From positions 1-16,672 of the forward strand of contig CAYXAY010000015.1 of NCBI GenBank assembly GCA_964463155.1: 16,672 nucleotides of DNA, written 5' to 3'. Under the pieces are notes generated by a model that worked only from the letters and a program-made list of their open reading frames with translations, did no database searches and was not told the DNA's origin. The translations under genes were made by a program, and so were the position numbers. This document shows positions 2,382 to 16,672 of the stretch, one piece after another. How positions within the stretch are numbered: the first letter of the stretch is position 1; each line of letters begins with the position of its first letter. Origin of the DNA: an uncultured archaeon. GTDB taxonomy: Archaea > Iainarchaeota > Iainarchaeia > Iainarchaeales > CSSED10-239.

Positions 2382-2534
2382 ATGAACGATGCCGCAAAGC
2401 AGAGAAGACTAAAGAACATGTGGGTTTGTATGGCATGTAATGCCACAATGAGATCACCAAAGAAACCAACATTTTGTAGGAAATGTAAATCTGTAAAGAC
2501 TAGAGTAAAGAAGAAAGGTAAAAGAGCTAAGTAA
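2382..2534 (+). CDS. rpl40e: Ribosomal protein eL40 (50 aa zinc ribbon; not in the supplied ORF track)
   Basis: Hand translation gives MNDAAKQRRLKNMWVCMACNATMRSPKKPTFCRKCKSVKTRVKKKGKRAK. It has CxxC...CxxC and a basic tail like archaeal L40e. AGGTG lies ~10 nt upstream of the ATG; stop is TAA. Confidence 0.8.
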   Translation: MNDAAKQRRLKNMWVCMACNATMRSPKKPTFCRKCKSVKTRVKKKGKRAK

Positions 2535-3622: not shown

Positions 3623-4018
3623 TTAAATATTTAACCCAAGTTGTATAACTAAAGATAATTTCCTGTTTTTATTATCAAATCTTTTATCAAAGAAATTAAC
3701 AATTGTGCATACTCCCTGTTTTTCTCCAAATTCTCTCATTTTCTTTTCAAATACCCCCAAAATTATTGTTCCAGCGATTAATGTTATTACAGTTCCAATA
3801 CCATAAGATATTCCGTTTCTGTAAACTTCTGTAATTGCCGCAACAATAGCTCCTGCTCCAACAATTGTTGCAATTGCTGCAAAGCTAAAAAGCCAGAATA
3901 TTGTTTTTCTGTTGTTTAGAAGATAACTATTAATTCCTTCTTTTCTTGAAAAGAAAATAGCAACTCCTACCAGTATTAACAAATAAATTACTAACCAAAA
4001 CAATACGCTATCAATCAT
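3623..4018 (-). CDS. Small membrane protein resembling only the N-terminal ~130 aa of a sodium:solute symporter (SSS family); possible gene remnant
   Basis: About three hydrophobic helices. YLLNNRK..W..SFAAIATIVGAGAIV and TIVNFFDKRF resemble the SSS N-terminal region. The ORF ends 12 nt before the FEN1 start, far short of a ~500-aa transporter. Confidence 0.5.
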   Translation of the reverse strand: MIDSVLFWLVIYLLILVGVAIFFSRKEGINSYLLNNRKTIFWLFSFAAIATIVGAGAIVAAITEVYRNGISYGIGTVITLIAGTIILGVFEKKMREFGEKQGVCTIVNFFDKRFDNKNRKLSLVIQLGLNI

Positions 4019-4125: not shown

Positions 4126-5508
4126 GTGACAACTATTTTATGGGTTATTTCGATTTTTTTATTTGTCTTGCTTTGTGCAACTGCTGCAAGAGTGTTTCTA
4201 AAGCAAAAAACATTTTTATGGGTATTTATCCTTCTTCAAACACAATATCTTCTTAAGTTTGTAGATAGATTAGCTTTAAAACACCATAAAGCTTTAACTA
4301 AATTATCAATTTTTGGAATTGCAATTGGCTTTGGACCTTTTGGTGTTGATTATTTAATTAAGGATAAAGCAAGCAAGATTAAAAGAATATTTGTGTTTAT
4401 TATTTCATTTATAGTATTTACTATTGTTTCTTATTTCTTTGCCGGAAATTTGTTTTTTGGTAATCCTTTAATTCCTAAATATATTGGTTATTTTATAATA
4501 GCAATTACTGGATTTATGGGGTTGTCTGGTTTTATAATGGGTGCACTAATTTTTTCTGCATATGATATTATTGCTAAGATGTTTGTTGGTAAAGTTGCTT
4601 GCCCAGGTATTGGTCTTGTTATTCCCGGAGTACAGGTTCCTAAAACCAATTTCTATATTCCAATCTATGGTTGGATAATTTTAATTGCAGCTGCTTTTAT
4701 TCATGAGTTAAGCCATGGAATAATGCTAAGGGTTGCAAAAGTTAAACTAAAGTCAATGGGCGTAATGTTACTTGGAGTATTACCACTTGGAGCATTTGTT
4801 GAACCTGACGAAAAGAAGTTTAAAAAAATAGAAAATAAGAAAAAATTAAAGATGTATGCTGCTGGACCTGCCAGTAATCTAATTATTGCAATTATTTTCT
4901 TTATAGTATATCTTTTGATTGCTGCACCAATTAGTAATTACACAACTTCAATTGATAATTCCAGAGAGCTCGGATTAGTTGTGGGCAATGTTATTGAACA
5001 AGTTGAAATCTGTGGTTCGTCTTTTGAAAATCCAGCATTTGGTAAACTTGAAAAAAATGATTTGATTCTTTTTGTTAATGGTAGGAATATCAGCACAAGG
5101 ACAGATCTGAAAAGAGCAATAAAAAATGATTATGACAATGAGTTTGTTGTTAAAAATCTTGACACTAACATTACAAGAACAGAATATATAAGAACAAACG
5201 AGCTTGGTAACATTAGAATAACTGCTGATGTCCAGATTGACAAAAACATTCCTTTGCCAAAGAATTACACTGTCTACAAGTTAATCTATCAGATTATCTT
5301 TTGGATAATACTGCTAAACTTCATACTTGCAACAACAAACTTCCTTCCAACAGTCCCATTTGATGGAGGAGCAATGGCGCAGATAATCTTTGCTGATTAC
5401 TTAAATCCAAAAGAAGAAGAAGAAAAAAGAATGAAAAGGATAAAGAAGTTCTTTGGATATTCAGTAATACTTTTAGCATTACTAAATATTATTCCTTATT
5501 TTTTGTGA
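4126..5508 (+). CDS. Site-2 protease family (M50) membrane metalloprotease with an internal PDZ-like insert
   Basis: HELSHG (HExxH) in a transmembrane segment. NFLPTVPFDGG motif near the C-terminus. Multiple TM helices. The soluble middle region (GLVVGNV...FVNG) is PDZ-like. GTG start. Confidence 0.85.
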   Translation: MTTILWVISIFLFVLLCATAARVFLKQKTFLWVFILLQTQYLLKFVDRLALKHHKALTKLSIFGIAIGFGPFGVDYLIKDKASKIKRIFVFIISFIVFTIVSYFFAGNLFFGNPLIPKYIGYFIIAITGFMGLSGFIMGALIFSAYDIIAKMFVGKVACPGIGLVIPGVQVPKTNFYIPIYGWIILIAAAFIHELSHGIMLRVAKVKLKSMGVMLLGVLPLGAFVEPDEKKFKKIENKKKLKMYAAGPASNLIIAIIFFIVYLLIAAPISNYTTSIDNSRELGLVVGNVIEQVEICGSSFENPAFGKLEKNDLILFVNGRNISTRTDLKRAIKNDYDNEFVVKNLDTNITRTEYIRTNELGNIRITADVQIDKNIPLPKNYTVYKLIYQIIFWIILLNFILATTNFLPTVPFDGGAMAQIIFADYLNPKEEEEKRMKRIKKFFGYSVILLALLNIIPYFL

Positions 5509-5516
5509 GGGAAAAA

Positions 5517-6239
5517 ATGCCAATTACAATAAAATATGCAAGATCGTCAAAGAATTACAAACCAGGAATGTTAGATCATTTTATAACAAATATACCACAT
5601 CCACATCTGGCCGCTAGTTTTATTGTAATTAACGGAAAATATTTTGATGTTTCAAAAGAAAGACAAGAAACGCAAGTGAATCATGATTATTATAAAATTA
5701 ATGACGCAATATTTGAAAATAAATTTGAATATATCCAAAAGGGTCCAAAAATATTAATTATTAACCACAAAATAAAAATTGGACATACCCATCACGGAAA
5801 AGGAAGAACTTCTGCAACCCCGAGTATAAACGACATACGCACTTTTTTTTACGCCTATTTAAAATATGGCTCTACTTTTTGTGTGATTGTTGGAAGAGAT
5901 TATGAAGCAAACAAGATAACTGGAAAAACCATAATTGAGATTCCTATAAAATATGAAAAAACCATAAAAAACAAATATGGAAAGATGGTTGGGAAACAGG
6001 AATGGAATACACACTGGGATTGTGTTGATACTTTACTAAAAAGTCAAACAAAAAAAGGCTTGTTAAACAAAGGTCTAAAGATTACTGATAAAAACAAAGA
6101 ACTTAATGATGTAAAAAATGAATATCATAAAACGTATTTTCAAAAATTAAGTCAACTATTTGATTTAAATATTAAGATTCAAGAAGCCCCCGGATATAAA
6201 TTTAATAAAGAAACTATGTTTTTTGAAAAAATAGAATAA
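5517..6239 (+). CDS. Hypothetical protein with a possible JAB/MPN-like metal site
   Basis: ATG preceded by GAGGG. The start region overlaps the S2P stop (GTGA at 5505-5508). The motif KIGHTHHGKGRTSATPSINDI resembles JAMM HxH-x(n)-S-xx-D but has longer spacing, and no clear upstream Glu was found. Confidence 0.55.
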   Translation: MPITIKYARSSKNYKPGMLDHFITNIPHPHLAASFIVINGKYFDVSKERQETQVNHDYYKINDAIFENKFEYIQKGPKILIINHKIKIGHTHHGKGRTSATPSINDIRTFFYAYLKYGSTFCVIVGRDYEANKITGKTIIEIPIKYEKTIKNKYGKMVGKQEWNTHWDCVDTLLKSQTKKGLLNKGLKITDKNKELNDVKNEYHKTYFQKLSQLFDLNIKIQEAPGYKFNKETMFFEKIE

Positions 6240-6243
6240 AATT

Positions 6244-7650
6244 TTATTCAATTATCTCTACTGAATATCTTTGAAACTTTGTCTTTTCTCCTTTGTAGCA
6301 ATTACTGCTTAGTCCAGCCTTCTGACAAAGACTGGAAAGGAAAGAGTCTTTATCTGGAAGCTGTTCCCAGACTTGTGGGAGATAAACTGCACTTGCGGCT
6401 CCTTGCCTTAAGATAACCCCGTCTCCTTTCTTTATGTCAGTAAGAGAACAGTCCTCTGGCTTTGAAAGAATTGAAATTTCTATGTGTGTCTTTTCAAATT
6501 CCTCTTCTGTTAGACTATCAAAACGCGAATCTTGAAAAGCAGCAAACTTAGAGTTGTCAATTATTCCTTGAAAGACGGTTTTTGTGCTTGTGATGTTACC
6601 AATACACCCTCTTAATTTCCCAGAGATTGTTAAAGTCACAAAACTTCCTTTTCTTTCTAGGTATTCTTTTGGTATTGCTTGTTCTAGGTCCTCAAAGTTT
6701 TCTTTTCTTACATCAAAGATATTTTGTATTGATCTGTGTGCCAGTCGCAAAAGAAGATGTTCTTTTTCTTCAGAGAAAGCAATACTAGCATAGCCAACAA
6801 CTGTTTTTTTGTTTTTTGTGACATCTCCAGATGTTATTTGTTTTAATAGTTTTGGTTTATCCCACTTTCTTATCTTAGCAATTTCTGCTAATACCAATAT
6901 GGGATTTTTACCACAAGCATCTATTTTGTTATTTTTTGTATTGTCCAATATTTGCTGTATTGTTTTATTATCAATTTCTTTTGCTTTTTCTTCTGGTAAA
7001 TAATGAGAAAGATCGCTTGAGACAATTACTATTGTATTTTCGGTAATTTCTTTGTTTATTTCTTTTGCAATTTCTTGTATTTCTTTTTCGTTTACTTCTC
7101 CAACAATTATAGGAACAATTGTAAATTCTTTTCCTGCTTTTTTAAAGATATATTGTAAGAAAGGAAGCTGAACCTCAATTGCATGTTCTTTTTCATGTGG
7201 CGAATTGTTTATTTCTGCATTTATCTTCGTAGAATTTACTTTAATTTCTCCAAGAGGGGTTCTAAAGACATTATAGTCAGATACAACGGCCCCTTTAATA
7301 TACTCTGTGTGGTTTGGTGCAAGAATAATAACTTTGTAATTATCTTCTTTTCTTAACAATAAATCCAAGTAAAGCTCTTTATAACCAAACATTGCAGTTT
7401 GCCCAGAATAGAGGTATCCTGCGTGTGGAACAATAAGTGCATTTATTTTCCCCCCAACATAATTTATTTCTATTTTTTCAAAAAAGGTATCTAATTGACT
7501 TGTAAGTATTAATTTATTTTCAGGATAAAAACTTCCTGCGACTGCTGGCTTTCTAAAATTATTATCATTCATATTTCCCACAATTGCCTGTGATATTATT
7601 ATTAAAAATATAATCAAAGAAAAAACTATTGCTTTTATTATTTTACTCAT
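6244..7650 (-). CDS. Fusion protein: N-terminal signal/anchor helix + Memo-like domain (AmmeMemoRadiSam protein B type) + AMMECR1 domain (protein A type)
   Basis: Memo motifs: PAVAGSFYP, LIVPHAGYLYSG, SSDLSHY, DACG. AMMECR1 motifs: GSFVTLT..GKLRGCIG and SAVYLPQVW. The N-terminus KIIKAIVFSLIIFLIIISQAIV is hydrophobic. Its ATG overlaps the upstream gene's TGA (ATGA). Confidence 0.85.
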   Translation of the reverse strand: MSKIIKAIVFSLIIFLIIISQAIVGNMNDNNFRKPAVAGSFYPENKLILTSQLDTFFEKIEINYVGGKINALIVPHAGYLYSGQTAMFGYKELYLDLLLRKEDNYKVIILAPNHTEYIKGAVVSDYNVFRTPLGEIKVNSTKINAEINNSPHEKEHAIEVQLPFLQYIFKKAGKEFTIVPIIVGEVNEKEIQEIAKEINKEITENTIVIVSSDLSHYLPEEKAKEIDNKTIQQILDNTKNNKIDACGKNPILVLAEIAKIRKWDKPKLLKQITSGDVTKNKKTVVGYASIAFSEEKEHLLLRLAHRSIQNIFDVRKENFEDLEQAIPKEYLERKGSFVTLTISGKLRGCIGNITSTKTVFQGIIDNSKFAAFQDSRFDSLTEEEFEKTHIEISILSKPEDCSLTDIKKGDGVILRQGAASAVYLPQVWEQLPDKDSFLSSLCQKAGLSSNCYKGEKTKFQRYSVEIIE

Positions 7651-8555
7651 ATCTTTCTTATATATTCTGTATTTTCTAACAACGGATCAAACAGAAATAT
7701 TTTGTCTTTTTTTCTATCATAATAAATATTATCAAAATCCAAAATATCTGTTATTATCCTATTGTCGTCTATTCCATATTTTTTTTTATTTTTTAATTCT
7801 TGATAAATCTTATCTTTTGCATCTTCTATATATTCTTTTATTTCGTGTATTTTTGTTAAAGAAATTAGTCTTTCAGTAACCAACTTTTTTAAATGATATC
7901 CATTTAGTAATTCCGGAACAAAATCATAAACTATGTAACTTTTTTTACTTTCAAAATCTTTAAATGCAAAATGATGACTAATTATTGGTATTCCACAATC
8001 TTGAATTAAAGATAGTGCTTTTGCTTCACTAATACCATCAATCCCTCTTTCAATATAATCTCTAAAAGAAGAGGTGTTCTTATTTCCACTTGTTCTTTCT
8101 AAAATGCCGGAATTATTTGTTTCTTTTATAAAAAATCTCTTTATTTTTCCATTGTGTTTAACTGACAAGACATAAGCAACGTTTGTTGTTCTAACCGACG
8201 GCAGCATCAAGTGTCTTTTTATTTCAAATCTGCCTTCTGGGGCTTTATATTCTTTTAGTCTTTCTTTTGATACTCTATAAAATTCTCTTAATAGTCCTGG
8301 GGTTGCGCGTATTATCTGTTTTGCTAATTTAGAATATCCTAGTTCTTTTGTTTTAGATTCTACAAATCTAAATCTTGGATTTTTTACTTTTTCTTGAATT
8401 TCTATTTTTTGTCTTTCATTTAGAAATCTTAAGAAGTCTTTTTTTCTTTGTGTTCTTTCTTCAGGAGTTAATGTTAATTTAGTTTGATAAATGTGCTTTC
8501 TTTGTTCTCTTCTATTCATTGACTTATTTAGATTTATTTGCCTATTTTTAACCAT
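7647..8555 (-). CDS. Uncharacterised paralog P1 (longest copy, all motifs intact); possibly an atypical RIO/Bud32/Kdo-kinase-like fold
   Basis: Shares with P2 the motifs GYS..KQII..PGLL, ERL..YK.P.GRF.IK, FFIKETN, GIDGISEAKAL.LI, SYIVYDF, and DN.YY...K.KIFLFDP. The ATG at 8555 is preferred; a TTG alternative lies at 8564. It overlaps both the HIT stop and the Memo-AMMECR1 start. Confidence 0.8.
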   Translation of the reverse strand: MVKNRQINLNKSMNRREQRKHIYQTKLTLTPEERTQRKKDFLRFLNERQKIEIQEKVKNPRFRFVESKTKELGYSKLAKQIIRATPGLLREFYRVSKERLKEYKAPEGRFEIKRHLMLPSVRTTNVAYVLSVKHNGKIKRFFIKETNNSGILERTSGNKNTSSFRDYIERGIDGISEAKALSLIQDCGIPIISHHFAFKDFESKKSYIVYDFVPELLNGYHLKKLVTERLISLTKIHEIKEYIEDAKDKIYQELKNKKKYGIDDNRIITDILDFDNIYYDRKKDKIFLFDPLLENTEYIRKI

Positions 8556-8964
8556 TTTCTGCAAGTTTTAATTTATTTGCTAAACTTTCTAAATCTTCTT
8601 TTTGATATCCTGTATTTGGCCAGGTTTTATAATCATCAGTATCAAATCGTGGAACAATGTGGAAATGAATATGAAATACTGATTGTTCTGCTGATTGTCC
8701 TGAAGCATTTAATATATTTACACCAGTACAACCAAATTTTACCTTATAATTAATTGCAATCTTTTGAGTAACTTTAATTATTTTTTCTAAAATCTTATCC
8801 TTACAATCAAAGATGTTTTCATAATGTTTTTTTGATATCACAAGCGTATGTCCTTTAGCTATTGGGTTAATATCTAAAAACGCAATTACTTTCTTATCCT
8901 CATATACCTTATAACTATGCATTTTCCCTTTTGCAATCTTACAAAAAATACATCCTTTTACCAT
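8548..8964 (-). CDS. HIT (histidine triad) family nucleotide hydrolase/transferase
   Basis: Histidine triad HIHFHIVPR, plus CIFCKI and AFLDINP..GHTLV motifs. AGGAG lies 10 nt upstream of the ATG. Confidence 0.9.
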   Translation of the reverse strand: MVKGCIFCKIAKGKMHSYKVYEDKKVIAFLDINPIAKGHTLVISKKHYENIFDCKDKILEKIIKVTQKIAINYKVKFGCTGVNILNASGQSAEQSVFHIHFHIVPRFDTDDYKTWPNTGYQKEDLESLANKLKLAENG

Positions 8965-8970
8965 TTTTTT

Positions 8971-9069
8971 TCATCTCCTTTGTTTTTTTAATAATATTGG
9001 GTCAAATACATAGAATTTTCTTTCTTTTAAACTGTAGAAAGTATTATCTGTGCCAAAATCATAAACCCC
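8971..9069 (-). other. In-frame continuation of P2 beyond its TAG stop (32 codons + TGA), still encoding the family's C-terminal motif
   Basis: Hand translation after the TAG at 9070-9072 gives GVYDFGTDNTFYSLKERKFYVFDPILLKKQRR. This aligns with the P1 C-terminus DNIYYDRKKDKIFLFDPLL. It ends 6 nt before the HIT start codon. Confidence 0.6.
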
Positions 9070-9681
9070 CTAATATTGATCTAACCCAAATTTGTGAAAT
9101 TTGCTATTAATCCTTTTTTCTAAATCTTCTATTTGTTTCTTAAGATTCTTATATCTTACGGTTGTTATTTTATCTTCTCTTAATAAATCATCAATTGTTT
9201 TTAATTGCGAAAAATCACTAGTAATAAAACTTACTTTTCTATTTGGATCAACAAAAGACAGATGAGCAGAAATTACTTTTACGTCTTTTTCTTGTGCAAT
9301 TAATTCTATTGCCTTGTGCTCACTTATCCCATCTCTACCGTGTCTATATTTTATATCAAAACTATAACATCTATCTGGATTTCTATCATTACTTTCTTTA
9401 ATAAAATATTTTGTACCAATTGTAACTATATATACTGAATTTGTATTAGTGTTATTTCTTGGTTTTTCTTGTTTTATACTAAATCTTCCTAATGGATCTT
9501 TATAAAAATATAATCTTTCTGTTACAACTTTATCAAATCCTGCTAAAATTCCGGGATTTTCTTTTATAATCTGTTTTCCGTGTAAAGAATATCCCTGTTC
9601 TTTTCCTGAATGACTTGAATGAAATACACTATTTCCTATTTCTTGTTTAATTGTACTTTTTGTATTTTTTACCAAAGCCAT
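9070..9681 (-). CDS. Uncharacterised paralog P2, truncated by an in-frame TAG (possible pseudogene or readthrough gene)
   Basis: Clear similarity to P1 (GYS, KQII.ENPGIL, ERLYFYKDPLGRFSIK, YFIKESN, GRDGISEHKAIELI, VSFITSDF). GGAG RBS before the ATG. The stop is TAG, with conserved sequence continuing in frame. Confidence 0.75.
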   Translation of the reverse strand: MALVKNTKSTIKQEIGNSVFHSSHSGKEQGYSLHGKQIIKENPGILAGFDKVVTERLYFYKDPLGRFSIKQEKPRNNTNTNSVYIVTIGTKYFIKESNDRNPDRCYSFDIKYRHGRDGISEHKAIELIAQEKDVKVISAHLSFVDPNRKVSFITSDFSQLKTIDDLLREDKITTVRYKNLKKQIEDLEKRINSKFHKFGLDQY

Positions 9682-9693
9682 TTTTTACTCCAT

Positions 9694-10446
9694 TTACTCT
9701 AATTGATAATCTTCTGCTGTAAATCTTTTCTGATATTCAAATCTATTTTTTCTTAAATCTACTTCTGGATTAAATACTACAAATAGTCTTGTTGTTGGAT
9801 TAAATAAAATTTCGTGTTCTTTATAGAAACTAAATAATAATTCTTCTCTTGTTGGTTTTGTTTTTTTTAGTTTTGATAATATCTGGTGGTAATATTTAGA
9901 ATTTATGTTAAAAACATTATTTTCAAATTCTTTAATCTCAGTTTCAGTTAAAGTTCTTGCTTTTTTTGCTTTCTCAATGGTTTGTAATTTTTCTAATTCT
10001 CTATAGTCATAAGCAATATAGCTTTCTCCTTTTTTTAAATTACTATATGCAAATTCCACAGGGACTGTATTAACTCCATGTGCTTCTAATTCTGACATAA
10101 TTACTGCCGAATTATATGCGTGATTTCCCCAAGTTCTTTCTTTATTTGTTTGTTCTATCTTTCTAACATAAAGTTTTTGTTCTTTAGTTTCAATTGAGAA
10201 AGAATTAGGAGATTTTAGTTTTTTAAATGAGAAATATTTTGTTGTAGAAAAACTTTTTCCGTCTCTTATAAATTTTAAAAACTTAAGAATAAGACTTGGA
10301 TTTTCTTTTAATGTAACTCTTGTCTTTGGAGTAATAGCTAAAGCTACATTAACTTTTTCATTAAACTCCAATCTTGGTTTTCTTAGTGGTTTCCCAATAA
10401 TTTTGGAATATATTGGATTCTTAGAAATATCCAATCTTTTTCTCAT
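9694..10446 (-). CDS. Uncharacterised paralog P3 (divergent copy; acidic residues of the C-terminal motif replaced)
   Basis: KENPSLIL, LYVRKIEQTN, ELEAHGVNTVPVEFAYSNLKKGESYIAYDY and LFVVFNPEV align to P1 and P2. The start was moved to the internal ATG at 10446, because the track's N-terminal 54 codons run through tRNA-Gly. Confidence 0.75.
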   Translation of the reverse strand: MRKRLDISKNPIYSKIIGKPLRKPRLEFNEKVNVALAITPKTRVTLKENPSLILKFLKFIRDGKSFSTTKYFSFKKLKSPNSFSIETKEQKLYVRKIEQTNKERTWGNHAYNSAVIMSELEAHGVNTVPVEFAYSNLKKGESYIAYDYRELEKLQTIEKAKKARTLTETEIKEFENNVFNINSKYYHQILSKLKKTKPTREELLFSFYKEHEILFNPTTRLFVVFNPEVDLRKNRFEYQKRFTAEDYQLE

Positions 10447-10514
10447 ATACAAATAGTGAAAGATAACTCTTAAATAGGTATTTATTAGACAAAAATAGAC
10501 TATAATTAAAAGAG

Positions 10515-10586
10515 TGCAACTACCGGGATTCGAACCCGGCTCATCAGCTTGGAAGGCTGAGATCCTAACCGCTAGACTATAGTTGC
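10515..10586 (-). tRNA. tRNA-Gly (anticodon UCC), no encoded CCA
   Basis: Hand-folded cloverleaf: acceptor GCAACTA/TAGTTGC, anticodon stem TCAGC/GCTGA with loop CTTCCAA, T arm CCGGG-TTCGAAT-CCCGG. Length 72 nt. Confidence 0.93.
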
Positions 10587-14946: not shown

Positions 14947-16672
14947 TTAAATTTGTGGAAATCGTGTTTTTTTCTTGCGGATTATTATTGTTGCTAGTAC
15001 TATTGTAACCAATAATAATAACATGATTATCACAATATAAATTGAAGACGCGCCTTTTGTTTTTACTGGATTTTCTTCTGAATTTGTAATTGCTTTTTCT
15101 GGTTTACATTCGCCAGTATATGCAATATCTGCTTTTGCAACATCTGCATTGCATTTATTTGAATAAGTGACTCCATCTATACCACACACCGGAAAATATT
15201 CCATTGTACACATTATGTCTTGCTTACTTGTATCTATTTTAAAAATATCTGTAGATTCTAAAACAGCAGGGGGGGAAAATTGTAAAACATTTAGATTTGT
15301 GCGTGGTTTAATATTTGAATAAATCATATAAACTAATTTGGTATCTTGACCTGCTTTAATTAAAGGAACAGTAAACCCAACTACTGGATCGTCCTTTAAT
15401 ATAGTAAATTTTGTTTCAGATTGTATTTGTGATGCAGAAATTGCAATTTCTTTTGGTATTTCAACAACTAAGATTACATTTTCTTGATCTAATCCTTTTT
15501 TGTTTTTTATAATTATTGTAATTGTTGTTTTATAACTTTTTTTGCCACCAGAAATTATTTGTTCAATCTTTGAATCTATATTAAATTCAAAATTCTCTGA
15601 ATTTGAAATCATTTTTGAAATCTCTTCTGAATTAAATAATTTATTCCCTTGTTCATCAATTATTTCATTTAAAATTTTACTTAATGCCTCTTGAGAATAT
15701 GTAATTGGTTGAGTGGATTCTGAAATTATAGTTCTCCCATCAACTACTGGTGCTGATGACCCACCACCGCCACCGCCACCACCAGAGGCGCTTGTCTTAA
15801 ATGCCTTTGAAGCATTTGAATCATTGTTATTTAAATCCCTACAAGCAACATAAAATGTATAATCGGTGTTTGCTATTAATCCACTTAAATTAAGTACACC
15901 TGTACCAATTCCTGCATTTGTTGTAATTAATAAATTTACATTCGCTGGCATTGAGTCATAATTTAAATCTTCAATACTTCTTCTACAAGTTACTAATTCA
16001 TTTGTTGTTACTGTTAATCTTGCAGTTGTTGTTGTTTTTGTTAGAGAGCTTAAAGAAATAATTGGACTTGTAATGTCTGGCAAAGTGGTAAAATCAAACC
16101 GCTTATACTCTACCGAATCATTACCTGCAATATCTCTACATCTTACAAATAAATTGTAATCTGTTTCTCCATTTAAGTCATAAACAACAATTGAACCATA
16201 TAGATCAATTATTTTTTCATGAATCATGTCGGGGTAATTTTTATTTTCGTCAATACTATATCTACAATTTACTTTTTCATTAGAATTTATATCCACTGAA
16301 GCATTTATATCTCCAATTACTGTTGCAGAAGGCATGTTTATGTTCAAATCAAAATTAGGAGCAATAGTGTCAATTACAATTGCCTTATTTTCTCCTAATG
16401 ATCCGGGATATCCGGGATTAACTAATGTAAGATTTGCATCCATTGAATTATTGTTTTTTATAGTTCCGCCATTTAATACCAATGCAGTTGTATCAATATA
16501 ATCTAAATCAGAAGAAACATCTCCATCCTGAACAGTATACAAAAATCCTAAAGTTGTTGTACCGGTTCCAGAAACATAACTTGCCTCTCTGTCTGTTTCT
16601 CCTGTTTCTAAATATAGTGTTGGTGCTCCCGTAACTTTAACAATTTCACTAAACTGAACAGTAATAGTAATA
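14947..16672 (-). CDS. C-terminal part of a large membrane-anchored surface protein (5' end outside the window)
   Basis: The frame stays open from 16542 to the window end. The track's start is a TTG inside the ORF. Contents: adhesin-type Ig-like repeat ([12 protein letters not shown]...[14 protein letters not shown]...LNGGTIKN), two Cys-containing repeats, a Gly8 linker, a Kazal-like module, and a C-terminal TM helix followed by RKKK. Confidence 0.85.
15793..16359 (-). repeat. Two tandem ~90-aa protein-level repeats inside the surface protein
   Basis: Repeat 1 reads [16 protein letters not shown]...[17 protein letters not shown]. Repeat 2 reads [15 protein letters not shown]...[17 protein letters not shown]. 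The Cys, Tyr and CRD..N(N)DS positions are conserved between them. Confidence 0.7.

Follow-up and report, generated by a model that had tools for sequence, protein, structure and literature searches.

A predicted family of minimal protein-kinase-like proteins in a HIT and Memo-AMMECR1 gene cluster of an archaeal contig

We analyzed a 16,672-nucleotide (nt) stretch of archaeal DNA (contig CAYXAY010000015.1; about 16.7 kb, hereafter the window, whose positions are used for all coordinates) that carries a cluster of five minus-strand genes: three paralogs named P3, P2 and P1, a histidine triad (HIT) protein, and a fusion of the Memo and AMMECR1 domains. The locus raises two questions, namely what kind of proteins P1-P3 are, and whether their tight packing with HIT and Memo-AMMECR1 reflects a common function. 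A first-pass annotation, made from the letters of the DNA, had guessed that P1-P3 are kinase-like and had placed all five genes in one module. From sequence comparison and structure modelling, P1-P3 belong to an unnamed, fast-evolving family of minimal protein-kinase-like (PKL) proteins. The evidence for this family, the state of its three copies and its genomic context are described below.

Conserved motifs and predicted fold

Scans with the Pfam and NCBIfam models gave no match for P1-P3. A word-indexed search of 5.8 billion clusters recovered 8 relatives and a second such search 16 proteins, and an HMMER profile run exhaustively against 1.84 billion representatives recovered 74 proteins at E ≤ 1e-3, nearly all of them 230-290 amino acids (aa) long. 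In the 51-sequence family alignment, from which all motif counts were taken, the conserved positions correspond to kinase positions and stand in the correct order. The lysine of the FIKE motif (K144 in P1) is kept in 47 of 51 sequences, the glutamate of 'G.sE.kA' (E177) in 43, the aspartate and asparagine of 'isDi...N.f.D' in 43 (D270) and 36 (N276), respectively, and the aspartate of 'lyiFDP' (D290) in 44. A hinge-like 'SfIvYD' motif is also conserved, and 31 of the 51 sequences have the complete KEDND pentad. All of the motifs from which a kinase had first been suspected (FIKE, ISEAKAL followed by GIPIIS, SYIVYDF and FDP) were found in P1, and the suspicion itself is supported, as motif order, profile register and predicted fold agree.

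Profile comparisons place these motifs in register with protein kinases. The best match of the family profile among the sequences of the PDB was CK2alpha' (E = 0.011), with the Asp, Asn and Asp of the stretch 'isDinpeNvFiDpktkklyifDp' aligned to the Asp of HRD, the catalytic Asn and the Asp of DWG in CK2alpha'. A 73-sequence profile gave a collinear alignment from the N-lobe to the DFG motif with a 279-aa kinase (6VVG, E = 0.019), and a 9-sequence profile had no matches among the PDB sequences.

The AlphaFold2 model built with 51 sequences reached a mean predicted local distance difference test score (pLDDT) of 87.6 and a predicted template modelling score (pTM) of 0.79; the model from a shallow alignment had a pLDDT of 62. 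For both models, the top 50 Foldseek matches in the PDB were all kinases, GRK2, MRCK, ASK1, PhK-gamma2, Rio1, CurKC and LicA among them, with a probability of up to 0.99 for the confident model. In the viral structure library BFVD, 24 of the 27 top matches carried a kinase annotation and the other three were unnamed. The modelled chain begins with a hairpin and two helices that bear a PGL motif, followed by an N-lobe with the FIKE Lys and the Glu of helix alphaC, the hinge SYIVYDF, helices alphaD and alphaE, a catalytic loop with the D...N pair, and the Mg-binding Asp in FDP, equivalent to DFG. A low-pLDDT, presumably disordered insert occupies residues 149-163 between strand beta3 and alphaC. 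The chain stops about 12 residues past the DFG-type Asp and is devoid of an activation segment and of the alphaF-alphaI substrate platform; no GxGxxG glycine-rich loop was found in P1. These elements are also absent or reduced in RIO and Bud32 kinases, thus their absence does not exclude the family from the PKL superfamily.

Several observations weigh against a kinase-like assignment. Foldseek E-values were no better than 3e-3 in the PDB and 7.8e-4 in BFVD, with TM scores of 0.3-0.43, and the profile-to-PDB E-values were only about 0.01-0.02. P1 has no glycine-rich loop and its catalytic loop is spaced D-x5-N, whereas the canonical spacing is D-x4-N; a kinase fold modelled without alphaF would be unusual. 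Finally, a direct hhalign comparison with yeast Bud32 (query sequence verified against 4WW5) was not significant (probability 0.14), although it set K144 and E177 opposite the Bud32 Lys and Glu. Taken singly, the links are weak (E of about 1e-3 to 1e-2, TM below 0.5); as three independent lines concur in their register, however, we regard the kinase-like fold as established with high probability.

Relation to RIO, Bud32 and other known kinases

The motif order had originally been likened to that of RIO, Bud32 and Kdo kinases. The likeness to RIO and Bud32 proved correct as to architecture, whereas membership in the RIO, Bud32 or Kdo families was not borne out. If P1-P3 were diverged orthologs or replacements of Bud32 or RIO, they would be ATPase switches on the tRNA-modifying KEOPS complex or on ribosome-assembly complexes. 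RIO kinases, represented by Rio1 of Archaeoglobus fulgidus (PDB 1ZTF/1ZTH), resemble the P family as small atypical PKL proteins with no activation segment or substrate-binding subdomain and with the same Lys/Glu/Asp...Asn/Asp set; the N-terminal helices and the low-pLDDT beta3-alphaC insert of our model may correspond to the extra N-terminal helices and the disordered insert of RIO. Of the Foldseek matches, A. fulgidus Rio1 had the best coverage; its alignments were the longest and its target-normalised TM scores (0.40-0.43) the highest. Bud32 (also PRPK), itself an ATPase switch inside KEOPS, is likewise a minimal kinase with a truncated C-lobe. Two further points speak for such an origin: P1 carries a strongly basic N-terminal extension, and one distant member of the family, P0038, is encoded 15 nt downstream of the gene for Cgi121, a KEOPS subunit to which the atypical kinase Bud32 is bound.

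The comparisons with family models argue otherwise. The Pfam RIO1 model (PF01163) did not match P1-P3 at E ≤ 1 or any of the 51 members at E ≤ 0.01, and no member matched the NCBIfam Bud32/RIO models at E ≤ 0.1. None of what we take to be the signature motifs of RIO and Bud32, including the presumed ATP-loop and metal-loop signatures of RIO, is seen in the family alignment, which also weighs against this origin. The conserved N-terminal PGL module of the P family is not known from Bud32, and no linkage to Kae1 was seen. In contrast to RIO, the P proteins end shortly after the DFG-type Asp, occur in multiple copies and evolve fast. A copy number that varies from 1 to 4, fast and discordant evolution, loss and pseudogenisation are all unlike single-copy core machinery, and together with the non-significant Bud32 profile comparison they make an origin from Bud32 or RIO very unlikely.

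Eukaryotic-type Ser/Thr kinases (CK2alpha', ASK1, PhK-gamma2) provided the top Foldseek matches, with catalytic loop and DFG aligned in register. The P family differs from them by the lack of a glycine-rich loop, activation segment and alphaF-alphaI, at an identity of about 13-17% with marginal E-values. Isolated weak matches to other models were found among the 51 members, namely Kdo (E = 0.0058), Kinase-PolyVal (0.0086), HopBF1 (0.0015) and DUF6382 (5.9e-5). The last of these, a Pfam family, is matched weakly, below its cut-off, by three members including P0038. In TseJ and TsfJ, two proteins of type VII secretion (PMC11217815), DUF6382 occurs as a fusion with FHA. DUF6382 may be a kinase-like domain, too.

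State and turnover of the three copies

The paralogy of P1, P2 and P3 noted at first sight was confirmed by pairwise comparison (P1/P2: 34% identity, E = 9e-29; P1/P3: 20%, E = 6e-6), and P3 scored 77 bits against a family hidden Markov model (HMM) built without P3-type sequences. The set had been described as one intact, one interrupted and one degenerate copy; the first two descriptions stand, whereas P3 appears to be a conserved, catalytically dead paralog.

P1 possesses all five predicted catalytic residues (K144, E177, D270, N276 and D290) and ends 12 aa past D290. Its basic N-terminal extension of about 60 residues occurs in P1 alone, and its ratio of non-synonymous to synonymous divergence (dN/dS) is 0.11-0.17. 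As predicted from these features, P1 is the sole complete and catalytically equipped copy in the genome.

P2 encodes all catalytic motifs, but they are split by a TAG codon. The product up to this codon has 203 aa and lacks the catalytic loop and the DFG-type Asp, and the tail after it (GVYDFGTDNTFYSLKERKFYVFDP) aligns to the C-terminus of P1. An intact ortholog, P0008 (236 aa), has a Tyr at this position, thus the TAG represents a one-base change (TAY to TAG). P2 is missing in the closest relatives (L001-L004, L014 and L028; lineages are designated by L numbers), where the gene order is P3-HIT-P1-Memo, and it is intact in L010, L012 and L006/L007. The dN/dS of P2 against L007 is 0.23, suggesting that the inactivation is recent. 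These observations point to P2 being a redundant copy lately lost by a Tyr-to-TAG change. Two other explanations of the interrupted frame were rejected: a frameshift, as the only lesion is a single in-frame TAG, and recoding or read-through of TAG, as the same codon is the stop of the arginase and ornithine/arginine decarboxylase (OrnDC) genes in the window.

P3 has the motif string RSFEN in place of KEDND and thus lacks the alphaC Glu, the Asp and Asn of the catalytic loop and the DFG-type Asp. Its identity to the orthologs is 85%, and its dN/dS is 0.29-0.30. The P3 subfamily comprises at least five clusters at 50% identity, all of which have lost the residues at the Glu, Asp, Asn and Asp positions. 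A decaying copy is ruled out by the dN/dS of about 0.3, the conserved orthologs and the score against the independent HMM; P3 is thus predicted to be a conserved pseudokinase-type paralog, and as such it might act as a non-catalytic partner of P1. The arrangement resembles kinase/pseudokinase pairs such as LKB1-STRAD, in that a dead but conserved P3 is encoded near a P1 predicted to be active in most lineages of the clade. It differs from them in that P3 is absent in L016 and probably also in L006/L007.

Divergence is faster in the PKL genes than in the neighbouring genes, and discordant with theirs. Identities in L005/L006/L007 are 90% for FEN1, 78% for HIT, 77% for Memo, 51% for P1 and 70% for P2; the corresponding values in L012 are 85%, 80%, 77%, 85% and 38.5%. 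Hence P1 is conserved and P2 divergent in L012 and the reverse holds in L005-L007, while the flanks are 75-90% identical. This discordance could result from paralog replacement, recombination or episodic fast evolution. The fast copy has accumulated 2-6 times as much non-synonymous divergence as the flanks, yet dN/dS remains below 1 for all pairs, with synonymous divergence near saturation. The fast discordant change, a copy number of 1-4, and the occurrence of a gene fragment, a deletion and a nonsense allele together indicate birth-and-death evolution.

Such a pattern raises the possibility that the P proteins are minimal kinases and pseudokinases that diversify rapidly as effectors in conflicts between symbiont and host or virus and host, similar to HopBF1, a minimal-kinase effector. 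Tandem arrays with gene fragments (in L024), the nonsense mutation and deletions among close relatives, the excess of non-synonymous divergence with its discordance between paralogs, and the HopBF1 match would all fit this role. However, dN/dS stays below 1 throughout, no signal peptides were found, the genes lie amid housekeeping genes and not in islands, and the HopBF1 match is single and weak, so that we consider an effector role improbable. By analogy, P-family proteins might be lineage-restricted, rapidly turned-over minimal kinases and pseudokinases of small symbiotic archaea that act on host, virus or competitor proteins, with HIT perhaps reversing or editing the same nucleotide-dependent mark in the HIT-linked clade; this, too, we hold to be quite improbable.

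Gene order in the window and across relatives

The window starts with an archaeal 16S rRNA (5' 944 model positions), has a G+C content of about 30% and is densely packed with genes, which include, besides the cluster, those for FEN1, an M50 peptidase, dUTPase, arginase, Orn/Arg decarboxylase and a SET-domain protein. By composition and gene density, the source organism would belong to the DPANN type, a group of small-genome symbiotic archaea. All eleven lineages with gene neighbourhoods read are archaeal, and their genomes look compact and AT-rich.

Table 1. Features of the P-family cluster and its upstream boundary
Feature	Position	Strand	Description
P3	9694..10446	-	250 aa, ends TAA
P2	8971..9681	-	kinase-like paralog, frame ends TGA at 8971
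Premature TAG in P2	9070..9072	-	minus-strand reading and comparison with ortholog P0008
HIT	8548..8964	-	Pfam HIT and NCBIfam HinT-type matches
P1	7647..8555	-	302 aa, intact, predicted minimal protein-kinase-like protein
Memo-AMMECR1 fusion	6244..7650	-	Pfam and NCBIfam domain calls
tRNA-Gly(TCC)	10514..10586	-	upstream boundary of the cluster
TATA-like element TATTTAAG	10469..10476	-	read directly from sequence

The list of open reading frames (ORFs) and the minus-strand reading returned the five genes at the coordinates first given for them (Table 1), and the junctions are also as first described. The gap between P3 and P2 is 12 nt (ATGGAGTAAAAA) and contains GGAG, with the P2 start at 9681; 6 nt separate the P2 TGA from the HIT ATG (8964); HIT and P1 overlap by 8 nt (ATGGTTAA), the P1 ATG being at 8555; and P1 and Memo-AMMECR1 overlap through ATGA. 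The element TATTTAAG has its centre about 26-27 nt before the P3 ATG, a spacing generally known from archaeal promoters, and is a candidate promoter of a leaderless transcript led by P3. The interior of the cluster leaves no intergenic space for promoters, and the P genes, HIT and Memo-AMMECR1 are probably co-transcribed from a promoter upstream of P3.

Both neighbours belong to well-defined families. The HIT protein matches Pfam HIT with E = 2.5e-26 and 92.6 bits (cut-off 21.5) and has an intact histidine triad HIHFHIV; by these matches it is a HIT-family (HinT-like) nucleotide hydrolase. The fusion contains the Pfam domains Memo (E = 3.6e-53) and AMMECR1 (E = 8.9e-42) and exceeds both curated NCBIfam cut-offs (TIGR04336, 241 bits, cut-off 26; TIGR04335, 160.6 bits, cut-off 99), whose names correspond to AmmeMemoRadiSam components B (Memo) and A (AMMECR1). 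It differs from the AmmeMemoRadiSam system (TIGR04335/TIGR04336/TIGR04337) by a hydrophobic N-terminal anchor and by the lack of a radical SAM partner in the window. No radical SAM domain was found in the annotated ORFs of the window or in the gene tables of L001, L005, L009, L012 and L016; a gene for such a partner could lie in another part of the genome. The hydrophobic segment (MSKIIKAIVFSLIIFLIIISQAIVG, residues ~7-25, window 7576-7650, minus strand) directly precedes the canonical Memo start and is conserved in L015, L016, L028 and L029, which suggests that the fusion is membrane-anchored or exported. In literature searches on AmmeMemoRadiSam, Memo-AMMECR1 and DPANN kinases, nothing on the function of this arrangement came up.

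The packing could be taken to mean that a dedicated pathway joins the P-family kinases to HIT and to the anchored Memo-AMMECR1, in which, for instance, P1 would make a phosphorylated or nucleotidylated intermediate for HIT to edit and for Memo/AMMECR1 to use. Besides the overlapping or nearly abutting genes without room for separate promoters, all lineages read within the clade have the order PKL-HIT-(P1)-Memo/AMMECR1, and P1 lies precisely at the junction of HIT and Memo, with stop and start codons overlapping on either side. The complete clade order is invariant: (tRNA-Gly), one or two PKL genes, HIT, P1, Memo/AMMECR1, M50 and FEN1. However, the entire block from decarboxylase/dUTPase to FEN1 is syntenic and its flanking proteins are 70-90% identical (FEN1, 80-90%); given such close kinship, the linkage to HIT and Memo amounts to essentially one evolutionary observation. 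Moreover, equally tight gaps of 3, 4, 7 and 11 nt separate unrelated genes elsewhere in the window, thus little can be concluded about function from spacing as such. L016 has a single PKL gene before HIT, and its HIT gene directly overlaps Memo-AMMECR1 with no P1 between them, showing that HIT-Memo adjacency is independent of P1. The evolutionary rates of the PKL genes are also unlike those of HIT and Memo, and the hydrophobic N-terminus of Memo-AMMECR1 would suggest another location than that of the leaderless P proteins.

Outside the local clade, the idea of one module fails, as no distant homolog with a readable context adjoins HIT or Memo. A locus search with the family alignment gave 2 genome loci and 3 metagenome loci. 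One distant member lies directly after TBP, and others between RPA and CorA and between RPA and MCM. The Cgi121 gene next to P0038 (L018 1984-3371; also L019 and L020) scores 30.8 bits against its Pfam model (threshold 25), and this adjacency occurs in the P0038 subfamily only and not in the window. In L024 (846-3734) and L025, a 107-aa fragment of a fourth paralog is followed by a tandem array of three full-length kinase-like paralogs, with no HIT on the contig. A dedicated pathway is thus unlikely, and the adjacency to HIT and Memo-AMMECR1 looks like an inherited gene order in a compact genome and not like a family-wide functional coupling. Against this conclusion it has to be set that the contexts of distant members, although they cover every one that could be read, represent only about six independent cases, that the PKL-HIT adjacency is invariant in about ten lineages of the clade, and that P1 is translationally coupled to both of its neighbours. 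A lineage-specific functional link may therefore exist in this clade.

Proposed activity and other genes of the window

The overall explanation towards which we lean is that of a new minimal kinase-like family in which P1 is catalytically equipped, P2 has been knocked out and P3 is dead, with the neighbourhood reflecting inherited order. P1 would bind Mg-ATP. As it lacks a substrate platform of its own, it would most likely function as an ATPase or autophosphorylating switch in the style of RIO and Bud32 or, alternatively, as a kinase to which a partner, and not its own C-lobe, presents the substrate.

With this family, the PKL superfamily gains a branch that has not been modelled before, is unusually truncated and keeps its catalytic pentad under purifying selection, and thus offers a natural test of the minimal fold for ATP-dependent activity. 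Structure-based screens now routinely yield new PKL families (bioRxiv 10.64898/2026.09.18.752743). The locus also records gene birth and death (a duplication, a conserved pseudokinase, a nonsense allele and deletions) amid housekeeping genes whose arrangement in this reduced archaeal genome is otherwise static. The significance is limited by the narrowness of the family, by the lack of an assignable function and by the absence of support for a kinase-HIT-Memo-AMMECR1 pathway.

Four further genes of the window are described here. A 244-aa ORF of no known family (5505-6239, plus strand) separates Memo-AMMECR1 from the M50 peptidase, with a 4-nt overlap at the M50 stop. In the relatives compared, this slot holds ORFs with the C-terminal motif PGYKFNK..FFEK, one copy in L029 (1966-2667) and two tandem copies in L028 (3831-5284); it is empty in L001, and ORFs matched by position only are present in L005 (2423-3028) and L009. 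The gene looks like a member of a second variable family beside the cluster. A 131-aa ORF (3623-4018, minus strand) covers no more than positions 1-91 of the sodium:solute symporter model, which has 406, lacks a counterpart between M50 and FEN1 in L001, and is probably a gene remnant.

A 531-aa protein (14947-16542, minus strand) combines a Kazal-type inhibitor domain, a poly-Gly linker and a C-terminal hydrophobic anchor, and is probably a surface protein. Finally, a 50-aa Lys/Arg-rich ORF with four cysteines (Cys4; 2382-2534, plus strand) has no Pfam match; a 50-aa gene is found beside FEN1 at this position in L001, L002, L009, L012 and L016, and the ORF may encode a small zinc-ribbon ribosomal protein.

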